Below are positions 12,305 through 16,623 of a DNA stretch of 32,000 bases, one piece after another. Every line of letters starts with the position of its first letter. Positions within the stretch are counted from its first letter, which is position 1. The notes beneath the pieces were generated by a model. That model made no database searches and was not told where the DNA came from. It saw nothing but the letters and a program-made list of their open reading frames with translations. A program made the position numbers and the translations under genes. Source of the stretch: an archaeon (GTDB lineage: Archaea > Asgardarchaeota > Thorarchaeia > Thorarchaeales > Thorarchaeaceae); NCBI GenBank assembly GCA_024275415.1, contig JAJRZD010000077.1, forward strand, positions 1 through 32,000, in the 5' to 3' direction.

Positions 12305-13468
12305 TCACACCTGTCTTGTTGTGACCCCGCCCGGAATCGAGATCTTAGTGACAGTGGGAATATTTCCCGTCTGGCTTTCGTATTCTCTTGAAATAGTATC
12401 CATGAACGTACGCATGTTCCTCTCCTTGACTAATGCGATGATATTTCCCCCGAGCCCAGCGCCAGACATGCGTGCACCCAATACGCCATCAATTCTACTT
12501 GAAGATTCAACTAGGAGGTCTAGATTCGGATGTGATACCTCGTATAGGTCACGTGAAGACGCATGGGACTCTTTCATGAGTTCACCAAATCGTGCCAAAT
12601 CTCCTTCTTTAATTACTGCAGCTCCCTCCTTGACACGTGCATTTTCCATCACGATATGTCTGACACGATCGCTCTCAGTTTCATCGAGGATGTCATCTAC
12701 CTGAACAAGCTGGGCGTTGCTCACCTCGCTTAGACTGTGGATGTCCCATCCGCTTTCTTGCAAATGGTTCAGGGCCTTGATGCACTCACTTCTTCTTCTG
12801 TTGAGCACATCGCTCGCCTCCCTTGAAACCATCGAATCAATCACAACAAATGACGCTTCAAACTCGAATGGGATGTCGTAGGTGTGCATACTTCTACAAT
12901 CAATCCCTAGCAGGGCGTCTGATTTTCCAAGCTGCGATGAGAACTGGTCCATTACTCCGCACGAGATACCACAGAACACCCTCTCAGCTTCGAATGCTAG
13001 CATTGCTGCTGATTTGGGTCGTATACGCAATCCATTCAATGCAGAGATGAGGTTGAGAAGTGATACTTCCAACGCTGCGGACGAGCTCAATCCTCCTCCA
13101 ATAGGGATATTTCCATGAACCACCGCAGAAACGCTTCTGAAGTCGTATCCTCTTCTAGCGAGTGCCCACAGAACCCCTTTCACATATTTCTGCCATGTGT
13201 CGTCCGGCTCTAAGACTATCTGGATTGGATCCACGGAGAGGCTTTCATCCATATCCAATGCATACAGTGTGGTTCGCTCTGACAGTGTTCCTACCGACCA
13301 GATGTATCTGTCAATTGTGGCTGCAAGCACGAAACCTGCATTGTAATCAGTGTGATTCCCGAGCACCTCGATCCTTCCTGGTGCCCTTGAGCAATACACA
13401 TCCTGCCCTGATACATCCACTAAGTCTGAGAGATAATGAATCATACCCTCAAGCGTAATCGAATTCAT
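12305..13468 (-). CDS. galK: Galactokinase
   Basis: RAPGRIEVLGNHTDYN, GHMP motif PIGGGLSSSAA, CGVMDQ and GARMSGAGLGG. ATGA overlap with the galT stop. Confidence 0.95.
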   Translation of the reverse strand: MNSITLEGMIHYLSDLVDVSGQDVYCSRAPGRIEVLGNHTDYNAGFVLAATIDRYIWSVGTLSERTTLYALDMDESLSVDPIQIVLEPDDTWQKYVKGVLWALARRGYDFRSVSAVVHGNIPIGGGLSSSAALEVSLLNLISALNGLRIRPKSAAMLAFEAERVFCGISCGVMDQFSSQLGKSDALLGIDCRSMHTYDIPFEFEASFVVIDSMVSREASDVLNRRRSECIKALNHLQESGWDIHSLSEVSNAQLVQVDDILDETESDRVRHIVMENARVKEGAAVIKEGDLARFGELMKESHASSRDLYEVSHPNLDLLVESSSRIDGVLGARMSGAGLGGNIIALVKERNMRTFMDTISREYESQTGNIPTVTKISIPGGVTTRQV

Positions 13469-14043
13469 ATAGCGTCCCTCAGCTCTTTTGCCTTCTCTTC
13501 AGGAGAAGAGTCATTTGTGAATGTCCATGCCCCCGATTCGACACCTGCTAAGTATTTCAACCGTGCCCTGTCTCTCCAAGGCGGATAGAACTCCACATGG
13601 AAATGCCAGTAATCGTGATTGCCCCGCGTTGGGCGTGTGTGAAGAACCATCACATATGCCAGCTCGTCAAAAACCGCAGCAAATCGTTTGATCGTATCCG
13701 CAATGATCTCCCCGAACTCTCCGATGGTATTTTCAAGATCGCTGATACTCTGGACATGCTTTTTTGGATAGATATGTACCTCGTAAGGAAGTCTGGCCCC
13801 ATATGGGATTAGGGATATGAAGTGTTCGCTGTCATTGATCACCCGCTCCCTTGTCTTTAGCTCATTCTTAATGGCGTCACAGACAAGACAGAGACCCACT
13901 TCATCAAGGTAGTGCTTGAACTGATCAATCTCGGTTCTGACACGTGGGGGGATGAATGGTAGCGCATATGCCTGAGCATGAGGGTGGTTGAGGCTGACCC
14001 CGATTGCTTTCCCTCTATTCTCGAACTCCAGCACATATTCGAT
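13465..14043 (-). pseudogene. galT: Galactose-1-phosphate uridylyltransferase, 3' fragment (interrupted by insertion)
   Basis: IEYVLEFENRGKAIGVSLNHPHAQ (HPH nucleophile motif) and HFHVEFYPP...KYLAGVESG. It joins the 5' fragment in frame when 2119 bp are removed. Confidence 0.93.
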
Positions 14044-14126
14044 ACCCCCTCGTCCTACTGCTACGAATTGCCAACGGCTTACCCCGTTCGTTGGCAACTT
14101 TGCAGGACGGACGAAAGGGAGGGGGC
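14044..14126 (-). ncRNA. Candidate 83-nt hairpin RNA (or ssDNA hairpin) at the distal end of the insertion
   Basis: Three stacked stems of 7, 8 and 11 bp with three G.U pairs that work only on the minus strand. It starts about 24 nt downstream of a TATA box and ends on the junction T. Confidence 0.5.
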
Positions 14127-14149
14127 GACTCGATAGCACTTTTTTCATC

Positions 14150-14157
14150 TTATATAA
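14150..14157. promoter_or_regulatory. Palindromic TATA box TTATATAA (potentially bidirectional) inside the passenger DNA
   Basis: Self-complementary 8-mer, 24 nt from the hairpin 5' end on one side and 29 nt from ATG 14186 on the other. Confidence 0.5.
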
Positions 14158-14185
14158 TCCTCACGCTGTGCCAGGACAGGTGGAC

Positions 14186-14305
14186 ATGCCTTGGAGAAAC
14201 GACGACTATACTTTCCAGTTCGAGGAGGAAGAGGAGGTCGCGGCTGTCATGGACGACGACGGGGAAGTGCTTGCCGTCGCCTATAGAGACCCTGACTTTA
14301 TCGAC
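14186..14305 (+). pseudogene. 5' fragment (40 codons) of an acidic foreign-looking gene, truncated at the IS607 right end
   Basis: AGGTGG RBS-like site, then MPWRNDDYTFQFEEEEEVAAVMDDDGEVLAVAYRDPDFID. 14 of 40 residues are D/E and 8 of 8 Asp codons are GAC. The coding character stops at the CC core (14305-14306). Confidence 0.55.
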
Positions 14306-14480
14306 CGTTGCCCGAAACTTACCCAAATGGGACAGTATTCCCAATGGTGTTCGGTTCCTGATTCATCGAGGTCTGCTCGGTTGTCAACCCCGAAGGATCG
14401 ACTAGGAGTCTCGTGTCCTCTCCACAGGCGTTTTGTGTCTCCGTCCAACTGGCGGCGACCAGATTATTCGCAGCATTCAA
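14285..14480 (-). ncRNA. Predicted TnpB omega RNA (scaffold overlapping the tnpB 3' end plus about 20 nt of guide); boundaries approximate
   Basis: Inferred from the known IS605/IS607 architecture, where the omega RNA overlaps the tnpB 3' end and the right end and the guide is the flanking DNA. Not directly observed. Confidence 0.55.
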
Positions 14481-15548
14481 GTCACGGTCAATGACCAGTC
14501 CACATTTCTCACAGACATATGTTCTGTCTGACAGTGTGAGATCCGTCTTGATATGACCGCAACCTGAACACATCTTACTCGATGGGAAGAACCTCGGAGC
14601 TATCACCAACTCAGAGCCATACCATAGGCTCTTGTACTCTAGCTGTCTTCTCATCTCCCAAAATCCCACGTCAGCGATGTTTCTCGCAAGTCTATGATTC
14701 TTCATCATCCCAGACACATTCAAGTCCTCAATCACTATCCGGCTGTGGTTCTTGGCCAGTCGTGTTGTCATCTTATGAAGTGTGTCTTGTCTGATATTAC
14801 GGATCTTGAGGTGAAGTCTAGCCAGTTGTCTCTTGGCCTTCTCTCGGTTCTTAGAGCCTTTCTTCTTTCGTGATAGTTGCCGTGATAATCTCCTCAACTT
14901 TCGTAGTCTGCTGTCCAATGCTCTGGGATTAGAGAACGTTTCTTTCTCAGATGTCACAGCCAGACGCTTGATCCCTACGTCAACTCCAATAGCAGGGCCA
15001 TCATTTATCGGGACTTCAATCTCTTCCTCTACAGCCACAGAAACGAACCATCTATCTGCTGTTCTTGAGATTGTGGCCGATAGGATTCTTCCAGAATGAT
15101 ATTGCTCTCGTTTCTCCTTGATGCGTATCCTACCGATTCTTGGAAGTTGTATTGTATGTCCAATAAACCTGATCGTCCCAGTTAGTCGGAAACTATCATG
15201 TACTCCTTTCTTTTTGAACTTCGGAAAACCAGCATTCTTCGCTCCATTTCTAATCCTACGAAAGAAGTTCTTGAACGCCTTATCAAGATCCCTTAGAGCC
15301 TCTTGTGGTGCACATTTGGAACATTGATACATCCATGAGAACTTGGTTTTCTTCAGACTGTTCAAAAGTTTATGTTGTTTCATGGCATCAGTGAATCTGT
15401 TATTCCCTTGGTTATTCTTGTATAGAGTGATACGTTGCTCAAGACCCCAGTTATATGCGAACCTTGCTACACCAGCATGTCGTGAAAACATTGTCCGTTG
15501 TTCATTGTTCGGATCAAGTTCATATTTGTATGCCATGAAGACCATCAA
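14319..15548 (-). CDS. tnpB: TnpB RNA-guided endonuclease (IS607-associated)
   Basis: N-terminal AYKYELDPN...AGVARFAYNWGL. RuvC D (GVDVG), E (IVIEDL) and D (DRDLNAA) are all intact, with a zinc finger CSGC...CEKC. Confidence 0.95.
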   Translation of the reverse strand: MMVFMAYKYELDPNNEQRTMFSRHAGVARFAYNWGLEQRITLYKNNQGNNRFTDAMKQHKLLNSLKKTKFSWMYQCSKCAPQEALRDLDKAFKNFFRRIRNGAKNAGFPKFKKKGVHDSFRLTGTIRFIGHTIQLPRIGRIRIKEKREQYHSGRILSATISRTADRWFVSVAVEEEIEVPINDGPAIGVDVGIKRLAVTSEKETFSNPRALDSRLRKLRRLSRQLSRKKKGSKNREKAKRQLARLHLKIRNIRQDTLHKMTTRLAKNHSRIVIEDLNVSGMMKNHRLARNIADVGFWEMRRQLEYKSLWYGSELVIAPRFFPSSKMCSGCGHIKTDLTLSDRTYVCEKCGLVIDRDLNAANNLVAASWTETQNACGEDTRLLVDPSGLTTEQTSMNQEPNTIGNTVPFG

Positions 15549-16108
15549 CCTTTTTTAGCAGCCTCCAATGCCCGTTTAGCACGATTCCTTGCAGAGCGCT
15601 GTCCATATAATCTTGCACAGAAACTTGTCAGAACATCAATCATATCTTGAACAAGGTCATTAACACATTCTGTTTGGTTTATTACTCTGATCTCTCTACC
15701 ACATGATTCAAGTGCATGAGAAATATATTCAAAACCAAATCTTGTCAGTCTGTCCTTATGCTCTACGATTATGATAGATGCAGACGGGTCCTTCAATATG
15801 TCCAACATCTTCTTTCGTTTCCCGTTCATTCCAGAACCGATCTCTGTTACCTCTTTTATGATTGTTAGACCATTAGAAGCAGCATAATCCCGAAGTCTTT
15901 GTAATTGTCGTATCAGATCTTCCTTTTGAGATGTAGAAGAAACACGGGCATAAAGAACAGCATTATTTGTAATGGTTGGGATCTCATGGACAAGAATAGT
16001 ACCCGTTGCTAGTTGTTCTGTTGGTCTTGGAAGATTTCCAGACCTATACAAACGGTAGGCTGTTTTATAATCAATCCCATGTTTTCTTGCCCAATCAGAT
16101 AGTTTCAT
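15545..16108 (-). CDS. tnpA: IS607-family serine transposase TnpA
   Basis: N-terminal MerR-like HTH (MKLSDWARKHGIDYKTAYRLY), catalytic YARVSS, EIGSGMN, EHKDRLTRFG and DVLTSFCARLYG. Confidence 0.95.
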   Translation of the reverse strand: MKLSDWARKHGIDYKTAYRLYRSGNLPRPTEQLATGTILVHEIPTITNNAVLYARVSSTSQKEDLIRQLQRLRDYAASNGLTIIKEVTEIGSGMNGKRKKMLDILKDPSASIIIVEHKDRLTRFGFEYISHALESCGREIRVINQTECVNDLVQDMIDVLTSFCARLYGQRSARNRAKRALEAAKKG

Positions 16109-16126
16109 GTATATCAATCCATATTA

Positions 16127-16143
16127 GGTATTATTTGGTATTA
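16127..16143 (-). repeat. IS607 left-end direct repeats (TAATACC x2, 10-bp period)
   Basis: GGTATTA occurs at 16127-16133 and 16137-16143 on the + strand. IS607 TnpA is known to bind short direct repeats in the left end. Confidence 0.5.
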
Positions 16144-16162
16144 ATCTTTTCTACTGTTGTTA

Positions 16163-16522
16163 ACCCTCTTTTGCCTCAAGATCATTGAATACTCTGATAT
16201 ACTCCCGAAAGACCTTCTCCAATTGAGCCCTATCCATCATCTCAATCTGTCTGTCGTGTTCACGGGACTCGATGATGACCTTACAGTACCCGTGCGCACT
16301 GGTTCCTATGACCAATTCTGAGTCCAAACGTACAGGGTGATCATCGGGCTGGAGCGCAGCATACCTGTTTTTGAGAGTAAGAACCTCCCAGTCGCCTTTG
16401 GTTTCCGGTTGTCCTGGGCAGAAGGGACAAGGTCTCTTTTCGTCCTGAAACGGTCGTGTCGCTCGGTTAGGTGTCACAATGACCCATTCACCAAGCATGA
16501 TATTCCATCGGAGTTCAGCCAT
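16163..16522 (-). pseudogene. galT: Galactose-1-phosphate uridylyltransferase, 5' fragment (120 codons, then a stop supplied by the IS left end)
   Basis: MAELRWNIMLGEWVIVTPNRATRP, CPFCPG, NRYAAL and GYCKVIIESREH are GalT N-terminal motifs. Confidence 0.93.
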
Positions 16523-16623
16523 TGCCTGCACCAATCTCTTCCTTTTCATTTCGCAAGTAGATTGATTAAGGTGACGCAAGGCACCATTGCTGTGAACATT
16601 CACTGACTCTTTGGTGGTACCTG

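Follow-up and report, generated by a model that had tools for sequence, protein, structure and literature searches.

A single-copy IS607-family insertion in a Thorarchaeaceae galT gene with 260 bp of orphan DNA between its right end and the host gene

What would a transposon-encoded RNA-guided nuclease target when the DNA beside its element is not the gene that the insertion interrupts? This question is raised by a 32,000-nucleotide stretch of archaeal DNA (hereafter the window; GenBank assembly GCA_024275415.1, contig JAJRZD010000077.1, positions 1 to 32,000) from a member of the Thorarchaeaceae, in which tnpA, tnpB and a guide-RNA scaffold sit on the minus strand inside galT and divide it. 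The source is a metagenome-assembled genome (MAG) of 3.5 Mb in 127 contigs, 92.9% complete with 4.5% contamination, and the window is the first 32 kb of its contig (C57). Rab-like GTPase and gelsolin genes suggest an Asgard-like gene content. As judged from its sequence, the element is an intact IS607-family insertion sequence (IS) of 1,859 bp (16163-14305) with a serine-recombinase TnpA, an ISDra2-like TnpB and a RAGATH-18-like omega-RNA scaffold. The total insertion in galT is longer, at 2,119 bp (16163-14045), and consists of this core plus a surplus of 260 bp (14304-14045) that we call the orphan segment. We favour the reading, at a probability of roughly 0.55, that these 260 bp are flanking DNA from the previous location of the element, which would have been mobilised together with the core on a single occasion and integrated with it in galT. 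Below we describe the joint with galT, the right end of the element, its predicted guide and the orphan segment, and weigh the histories that could have produced this arrangement.

Results

The insertion leaves a scarless galT joint

The N-terminal galT fragment (16164-16549, minus strand), which is delimited by the restored reading frame and the flank sequence, covers positions 11-150 of the Pfam profile GalP_UDP_transf. It closes ...GAG GG, and its last five nucleotides, GAGGG, form a left flank that resembles a target-adjacent motif (TAM). The C-terminal fragment (13465-14044, minus strand) resumes T ATC GAA TAT GTG and matches GalP_UDP_transf positions 150-184 followed by GalP_UDP_tr_C. 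Removal of 16163-14045, which joins 16164 to 14044, yields a single open galT frame (...EAKEG-IEYVLEFENRG...) with GAGGG followed by TATCGAATATG... at the restored joint, and galT DNA from five relatives runs over this joint without a gap. The 260-bp segment is missing from the intact galT genes of relatives. When 14000-14420 was searched as DNA against 60 relatives, only two parts of it matched: 14046-14000, so that galT homology begins only at 14046, and 14378-14304, of which several sister genomes contain multiple copies.

The junctions are of IS607 type. The left end (LE; 16118-16163, minus strand) starts TTAACAACAGTAGAA and contains AATACC repeats, its first bases, TTAAC, being preceded directly by the ...GAGGG of galT. 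The right end (RE) terminates ...CAACGG at 14305, and the outer end of the orphan segment, which reads GACGAGGGGG, terminates ...GAGGGGG at 14045. The outer end is therefore GG-terminated as well, GG borders the 2,119-bp insertion on both sides, and GAGGGGG is itself a target-type site. IS607 insertions are recognised by a GG core that precedes the LE and terminates the RE, by a scarless joint and by the lack of a target-site duplication, and all of these features are present here.

Two further features lie at the junction between the orphan segment and the C-terminal galT fragment. An ATG at 14148 (minus strand), within the orphan DNA, is in frame with this fragment and extends it by 34 foreign codons into a 227-residue open reading frame (ORF), which could yield a truncated GalT C-domain. 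In addition, a TATCGA direct repeat on the minus strand brackets the hairpin described below, one copy lying in orphan DNA (14135-14130) and the other comprising the first galT bases past the junction (14044-14039). We considered this repeat as a target duplication and dropped the idea, since a boundary there would be without a GG crossover.

The family right end lies 260 bp short of galT

To locate the right end we compared the element with its relatives. Twelve aligned loci have in common an RNA-like conserved block running from GTCGCCGCCAGTT to GTAAGTTTCGG(G/A)CAACGG, and past CAACGG all 12 are unrelated, even where two copies lie within one genome. The same boundary is seen in 25 distinct copies from five sister genomes, every one of which terminates in CAACGG, with no pair sharing the next 25 nucleotides. 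A full-length homologue from the same genus (G006:C338), which is 70-85% identical through tnpA and tnpB, agrees at both ends: homology begins with GG followed by TT..CAGTAGAA and halts directly after CAACGG, and the LE and RE are shared down to the base. Among four family loci the LE starts as GG followed by T(T/C)..CAGTAGAA. The ends are thus conserved with other copies and homology stops at them, as in IS607 elements. The flanks of G006:C338 had no match in the genome under study, and this element therefore provides no empty-site control. Because the 25 copies end in CAACGG and diverge immediately after it, we place the family right end at 14305.

The scaffold that ends here (14305-14459, minus strand; 155 nt) was delineated by alignment, consensus folding, a covariance model (CM) and nhmmer. 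It ends ...GTAAGTTTCGGGCAACGG, overlaps the last 47 codons of tnpB and is common to 11 aligned relatives, with 56 invariant columns over 155 nt. The consensus fold of this 11-sequence alignment contains 26 pairs, 5 of them with compensatory changes, indicating a conserved structured RNA with covariation at the 3' end of tnpB. The scaffold model (CM R1) scored 142.8 bits at 14459-14305, its sole match in the window, and the nhmmer profile likewise found one copy in the window (124 bits); with filters off and E-values of 10-1000, neither gave a scaffold-like match in 14045-14304. The full-length Rfam model RF03064 (RAGATH-18) matched 14355-14428 on the minus strand with 27.2 bits (E 0.027), below its 44.9-bit cut-off. 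The arrangement is a RAGATH-18-like core, ~50 nt of conserved 3' flank and then variable sequence. In characterised IS607 reRNAs a RAGATH-18 core is followed by ~60 conserved nucleotides of 3' flank, and these by a variable guide of 20 nt (PMC11061315), and IS607 scaffolds end ...UCGG with the GG core dinucleotide at the transposon border (10.1101/2023.11.20.567912). The single scaffold in the window, read against this published layout, therefore also points to a right end at 14305, with the predicted guide at 14304-14285.

Scaffold copies also occur apart from full-length elements. Relatives from genus g4 contain protein-less mini-elements of ~260-350 bp (L021:1308-1565; L005, minus strand; L004:~700-982) that consist of an IS607 LE, a TTTTATA box ~25 nt before GTCGCC and a full scaffold ending CAACGG, and three genomes (G009, G024 and G033) contain 21-34 scaffold matches apiece. 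In the genome under study a decayed scaffold copy is present at G000:C24:18753-18900 (L070:1501-1648; CM 18.6 bits, E 0.015) with no adjoining tnpB, and is probably the relic of an earlier insertion.

TnpA and TnpB retain their catalytic residues

tnpA (15545-16117, minus strand) encodes a 190-residue serine recombinase, in which residues 53-185 match the Pfam family Resolvase (PF00239; E 1e-18) and the catalytic-serine motif YARVSS is found at residue 56. A serine-recombinase TnpA with a resolvase catalytic domain is the defining protein of IS607 elements. The tnpA and tnpB reading frames overlap (16117-15545 and 15548-14319).

tnpB (14319-15548, minus strand) encodes a predicted RNA-guided nuclease of 409 residues with Pfam matches to OrfB_IS605 (PF01385), the Cas12f1-like TNB domain (PF07282) and HTH_OrfB_IS605 (PF12323). 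Residues 6-391 align with ISDra2 TnpB (PDB 8H1J/8EXA) with an E-value of 1e-71, and in this alignment D190, E274 and D356 correspond to the ISDra2 catalytic residues D191, E278 and D361. Both CxxC pairs of the zinc finger (CSGC and CEKC) are retained. The protein hence combines the RuvC D-E-D triad, the CxxC pairs and the N-terminal HTH/WED-REC layout of TnpB. Two more distant TnpB-like genes are present in the same genome (G000:C120:7874-8107 and G000:C82:6449-6592), with PF07282 scores of 58.8 and 46.3 bits and open frames of 360 and 563 residues, respectively.

The predicted guide is read from orphan DNA and would target the vacated core site

The 20 nt beyond the scaffold are TCGATAAAGTCAGGGTCTCT (14285-14304, minus strand). 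Both the position of the guide, directly 3' of the conserved scaffold, and an optimal length of 20 nt have been established for IS607 TnpB (PMC11061315). The TnpB ribonucleoprotein (RNP) would therefore be expected to carry the guide UCGAUAAAGUCAGGGUCUCU, that is, whatever adjoins the 3' end of the scaffold. For the 1,859-bp core this is the canonical arrangement, in which the guide is the DNA adjoining the right end. The unusual feature is that the right end adjoins orphan DNA, with galT, the interrupted gene, resuming only 260 bp further on.

The left flank of the element reads ...AAAGAGGG here and GGGGG, TAGGG and AGAGG in three other family loci. Reported TAMs of IS607 TnpB proteins are 5'-GAGGG or 5'-AGGAG (PMC11061315), and in another IS607 system the TAM, 5'-TGGG, is also the target motif of TnpA_S, with a strict GG core (10.1101/2023.11.20.567912). 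The GAGGG flank matches the first of these. Were TnpA to excise the 1,859-bp core precisely, GAGGG would be left joined to TCGATAAAGTCAGGGTCTCT, a TAM with a perfect protospacer, and the predicted natural target of this TnpB is GAGGG followed by TCGATAAAG.... IS607 TnpB is known to maintain its transposon by cutting the vacated joint (10.1101/2023.11.20.567912), and the TnpB studied here would keep this canonical role, in which a cut at the site that the core has left leads to the core being copied back. The DNA from which the guide itself is read is preceded by AACGG, which is not a TAM. The restored galT joint has the TAM-like GAGGG and mismatches the guide at most positions, while characterised IS607 TnpB is sensitive to single mismatches (PMC11061315). 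With this guide, TnpB is predicted neither to guard restored galT nor to be able to cut it.

These findings bear out the anatomy proposed in a first-pass annotation of this DNA. It had placed the right end at 14305, where the 12-locus alignment and the 25 copies ending in CAACGG place it, and had read the guide as 14304-14285, directly beyond that end and outside galT, exactly as we do. Its further proposals, that TnpB is catalytically intact, that the guide lacks a match to the restored galT joint and that it would match the joint formed when only the core is excised, agree with the conserved triad and CxxC pairs (as far as an alignment to ISDra2 can tell), with the sequence of that joint and with the GAGGG TAM supplied by the left flank. 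Its claims on the origin and use of the orphan segment fared differently, as described in the following sections.

The orphan segment is GC-rich, single-copy and without identifiable relatives

The orphan segment (14045-14304) has a GC content of 54.6%, as compared to 46.6% for the window and 42.7% for the IS core, placing it in the top 3% of 260-nt windows, and a DNA search of its own genome returned only its own locus. On the plus strand one frame is open across all 86 orphan codons, with a GC content at third codon positions of 0.70 in the last 40. Over its proximal 120-160 nt the segment is GC-rich, coding-like and unlike any family LE. The distal end forms an extended 85-nt hairpin (14045-14129, minus strand; minimum free energy -41.2 kcal/mol, z -3.98, with 0 of 200 shuffles equally stable), the base of which coincides with the galT junction. 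A palindromic TATA-like box, TTATATAA, which we recognised by its letters (14150-14157), precedes the hairpin by ~21 nt on the minus strand and, on the plus strand, precedes by 29 nt an ATG at 14186, a start that it could also serve. The hairpin had no relatives in the 60 relatives or in 400 genomes of the phylum. The idea that it represents a tRNA or att site was rejected, as ARAGORN found no tRNA in it and Rfam returned nothing in the orphan tail.

Searches for the origin of the segment gave the same answer at every scale. The DNA had no match in the 60 relatives and, in the 400 phylum genomes, only short AT-rich chance matches in unrelated contexts; a 40-residue orphan peptide had no match in 85 genomes of the family; and two peptide-seeded scans each of metagenome and genome contig collections found no match to orphan peptides. 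An exhaustive HMMER search of representatives with the 86-residue frame returned only giant repeat proteins (cadherin-like, MucBP), which we discarded as spurious products of summed weak repeats. A scan of viral sequences gave one lead, a contig (L024) encoding a portal protein (phrog_12082) in which 18 of 26 residues (69%) are identical to the plus-strand frame, over a motif that is conserved within that portal family. This lead was rejected as evidence of viral origin: a hidden Markov model (HMM) built from 120 portal homologues scored the tail at 7.6 bits, the tail had no match in PHROGs or Pfam at E-values up to 1, and the 36-bit pairwise match is estimated to be expected by chance in a six-frame space of at least 10^10 residues. 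The first-pass annotation had described the segment as a captured acidic gene, possibly from a virus or plasmid, and no credible homologue that would sustain this description was found in any collection searched.

Proposed flank co-mobilisation and competing histories

The history that we favour for the orphan segment, and the most parsimonious one, involves a single aberrant event. At an earlier site the right-hand crossover by TnpA would have fallen at a target-like GG (...GAGGGGG) 260 bp past the true end, and the enlarged circle thus formed would then have integrated at GAGGG in galT. Both crossovers look TnpA-made, because the left junction is the exact family LE and the right junction is a GG in a target-like G-run. 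Mobilisation of flanking DNA by read-through of an end has precedents in L1 3' transduction and in the one-ended transposition of IS91- and ISEcp1-type elements. Three points weigh against this history and the order of events it implies. Only one copy of the element and one of the 260 bp are present in the 92.9%-complete MAG; neither a donor locus nor a homologue of the 260 bp was found in its own genome, the 85 family genomes, the 400 phylum genomes or the genome, metagenome and viral collections; and we know of no case in which IS607 TnpA uses a surrogate right end.

An alternative that we consider unlikely has two steps. A 260-bp piece, for instance a decayed IS607 mini-element, would have inserted scarlessly at GAGGG/TATCG in galT, and the IS would have landed later at the same GAGGG. 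A resident element leaves GAGGG intact at its left border. On this account the 260 bp would never have been a passenger and the guide would be ordinary, flank-derived sequence. In support of such a sequence of events, insertion by TnpA_S retains the NGGG target at the left junction (10.1101/2023.11.20.567912), and mini-elements of about the right size, with LE, TATA box and scaffold, occur in relatives, as described above. The tail itself offers some likeness to such an element. On the minus strand the TATA box is followed ~21 nt later by GTCGCCCCC, to be compared with the invariant scaffold start of the family, GTCGCCGCC, and further on by GGGTAAG..GGCAA and then TT..AGCAGTAG, as at an RE-LE junction. 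When the tail was aligned with permissive gaps to a collinear promoter, scaffold and RE-LE junction, it scored 40.6 against a null of 27.6 ± 4.6 with one reference (2 of 300 resampled sequences, p ~0.007), but the same alignment was not significant with two other references (38/300 and 67/300) or with RE-LE junction models. Local alignment of the tail to the scaffold or the core was no better than that of shuffled sequences. Combined with the negative CM and nhmmer searches of the tail, these results leave the idea of a second or decayed scaffold, or of a right end, within it unsupported. The proximal 120-160 nt are, moreover, unlike a family LE, and the piece is single-copy here and has no copy in the 400 phylum genomes searched. 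We also observed that 14052-14084 (minus strand) reads GGGTAAG, 5 nt, GGCAA and then TT..AGCAGTAGGA, like an abutted RE-LE circle or tandem junction minus the CGG core; by alignment statistics this resemblance is not above chance.

An improbable third history invokes a cointegrate. Here a foreign replicon with its own copy of the IS would have fused to galT::IS by recombination between the two IS copies, after which a TnpA-made deletion, between the right-end GG of the second IS and a target-like GG located 260 bp inside the replicon, would have removed that IS and most of the replicon. Such a series of events would account for the scarless joint, the GAGGGGG end of the tail and its foreign-looking DNA without any surrogate right end having been mobilised. 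It requires more steps than the other histories, however, and neither a second IS copy nor the replicon has left a trace in the genome.

The first-pass annotation held that IS and orphan DNA move as a unit. In one version of this proposal, which we regard as improbable, TnpA would use the outer end as a surrogate right end, IS plus 260 bp would be the mobile unit and the guide would be constantly aimed, wherever the unit went, at the intact allele of the former carrier, possibly a virus or plasmid. If true, such a unit, its guide frozen, would form a natural link between TnpB programmed by its flank and the TldR- or Cas12-like systems with fixed guides. The composite is present once, and neither a second copy of IS plus passenger nor an empty donor site containing the passenger was found. 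A stronger version, proposed by the same annotation and slightly less likely still, makes the composite a bona fide mobile unit whose constant internal guide acts as a portable, spacer-like memory against the source virus or plasmid, a step toward Cas12-like domestication. Its logic is coherent. A donor allele that is intact and was never inserted into would carry TAM and protospacer by construction; a cut there would be destructive rather than homing, as the chromosomal copy is homologous on one side only; the tail is GC-richer than host DNA; and TnpB appears intact. The guide searches, however, returned no target of this kind. The 20-mer had no second match in its own genome at up to 3 mismatches and 0 matches in 2.9 million viral contigs, and the two viral-contig matches to GG plus the 16-mer, about the number estimated by chance, are preceded by GCGG or TTGG and show no extension. 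No guide match to a foreign element beside a suitable TAM was therefore found in the viral contigs, which yielded no credible match to the tail either (portal HMM 7.6 bits; PHROGs and Pfam silent). No other genome carries the guide (60 relatives, 400 phylum genomes and 25 family copies), so it is not conserved across strains, and tnpA and both ends are intact, with no sign of lost mobility. Canonical homing of a single-copy core accounts for the same facts, and a domestication step is not needed to explain a guide that, for the core, is simply the DNA adjoining the right end.

A chimeric join in the contig as the source of the 260 bp is very improbable. A MAG of 127 contigs with 4.5% contamination invites this concern, but a misjoin at a repeat would not re-enter galT at the exact frame-restoring base, and the IS is single-copy and hence leaves no repeat to collapse. 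Finally, that the omega RNA extends to 14045, or that a second scaffold lies in the tail, with galT flank as the guide, is scarcely tenable: the 85-nt hairpin does end exactly at the galT junction below a TATA-like box, but 25 of 25 family copies end the conserved RNA at CAACGG, the published layout puts the guide right after ~60 conserved nucleotides (PMC11061315), and the tail has neither a scaffold-like CM or nhmmer match nor a hairpin with relatives.

Discussion

Among the nearest known systems are IS607-family elements with a serine tnpA, tnpB and omega RNA, such as the IStron of Clostridium botulinum (Zedaveinyte et al., 10.1101/2023.11.20.567912). Like the element described here, the IStron has a serine TnpA, GG core dinucleotides at its two borders, a donor joint without a scar, an NGGG target motif that also serves TnpB as its TAM and a scaffold ending ...CGG directly before the guide, and the IStron TnpB cuts the vacated joint. 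Unlike the IStron, the element described here lacks a group I intron and resides in an Asgard-type archaeal host, and 260 bp of unrelated DNA separate its right end from the host gene, so that the full insertion is longer than the canonical element. ISFba1 TnpB (Ren et al., Cell Res 2024, PMC11061315; PDB 8IAZ) is similarly an IS607 TnpB of ~390-410 residues with a RAGATH-18-like core, ~50-60 nt of conserved 3' flank and a 20-nt guide, and its TAM class, GAGGG/AGGAG, includes the GAGGG left flank found here. In contrast to ISFba1, our scaffold scores 27.2 bits with the Rfam RAGATH-18 model against the 44.9-bit cut-off, and the activity of our TnpB is a prediction from sequence.

By similarity, the TnpB studied here is nearer to ISDra2 TnpB (E 1e-71) than to 8IAZ (E 5e-49). 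ISDra2 TnpB (Karvelis et al. 2021, PMC8612924) is its best natural structural relative, with the D/E/D residues and zinc finger conserved. ISDra2 is, however, an IS200/IS605 element that employs a Y1 TnpA, a single-stranded intermediate and a TTGAT TAM, whereas the present element has a serine recombinase and a G-rich TAM. The TldR proteins (Wiegand et al., 10.1101/2023.11.30.569447) share with this locus the idea of a guide that is uncoupled from the insertion and aimed at a constant target. TldRs are nuclease-dead, without transposon ends, and conserved with their targets across strains; here, by contrast, nuclease and transposon are intact, the element is single-copy and no target was found.

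As in L1 3' transduction and in IS91 and ISEcp1 one-ended transposition, extra DNA past the right end would have travelled here by way of a surrogate end. The chemistry of those systems, which is retrotransposition or rolling-circle or DDE transposition, differs from that of serine-recombinase IS607 elements, for which we know of no report of read-through co-mobilisation of flanking DNA.

The locus is an archaeal instance of the known IS607 and TnpB design with a RAGATH-18-like RNA and a one-off orphan of 260 bp at its right end. As a case seen only once, it is a structural oddity surrounding an element that is in other respects canonical. It provides a clean archaeal case of the IS607 tnpA-tnpB-omega-RNA arrangement, in which the left flank is a published TAM. 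It also shows one route by which the guide of a TnpB can become uncoupled from the gene interrupted by the whole insertion. Protection by the nuclease would extend to the 1,859-bp core but not to the full 2,119 bp, and a galT from which only the core had been excised would still be interrupted by the remaining 260 bp, with a frameshift. If the aberrant choice of right end proposed here is correct, it would constitute a new route by which IS607 elements pick up flanking DNA and freeze a guide, and would bear on the origin of fixed-guide descendants of TnpB.

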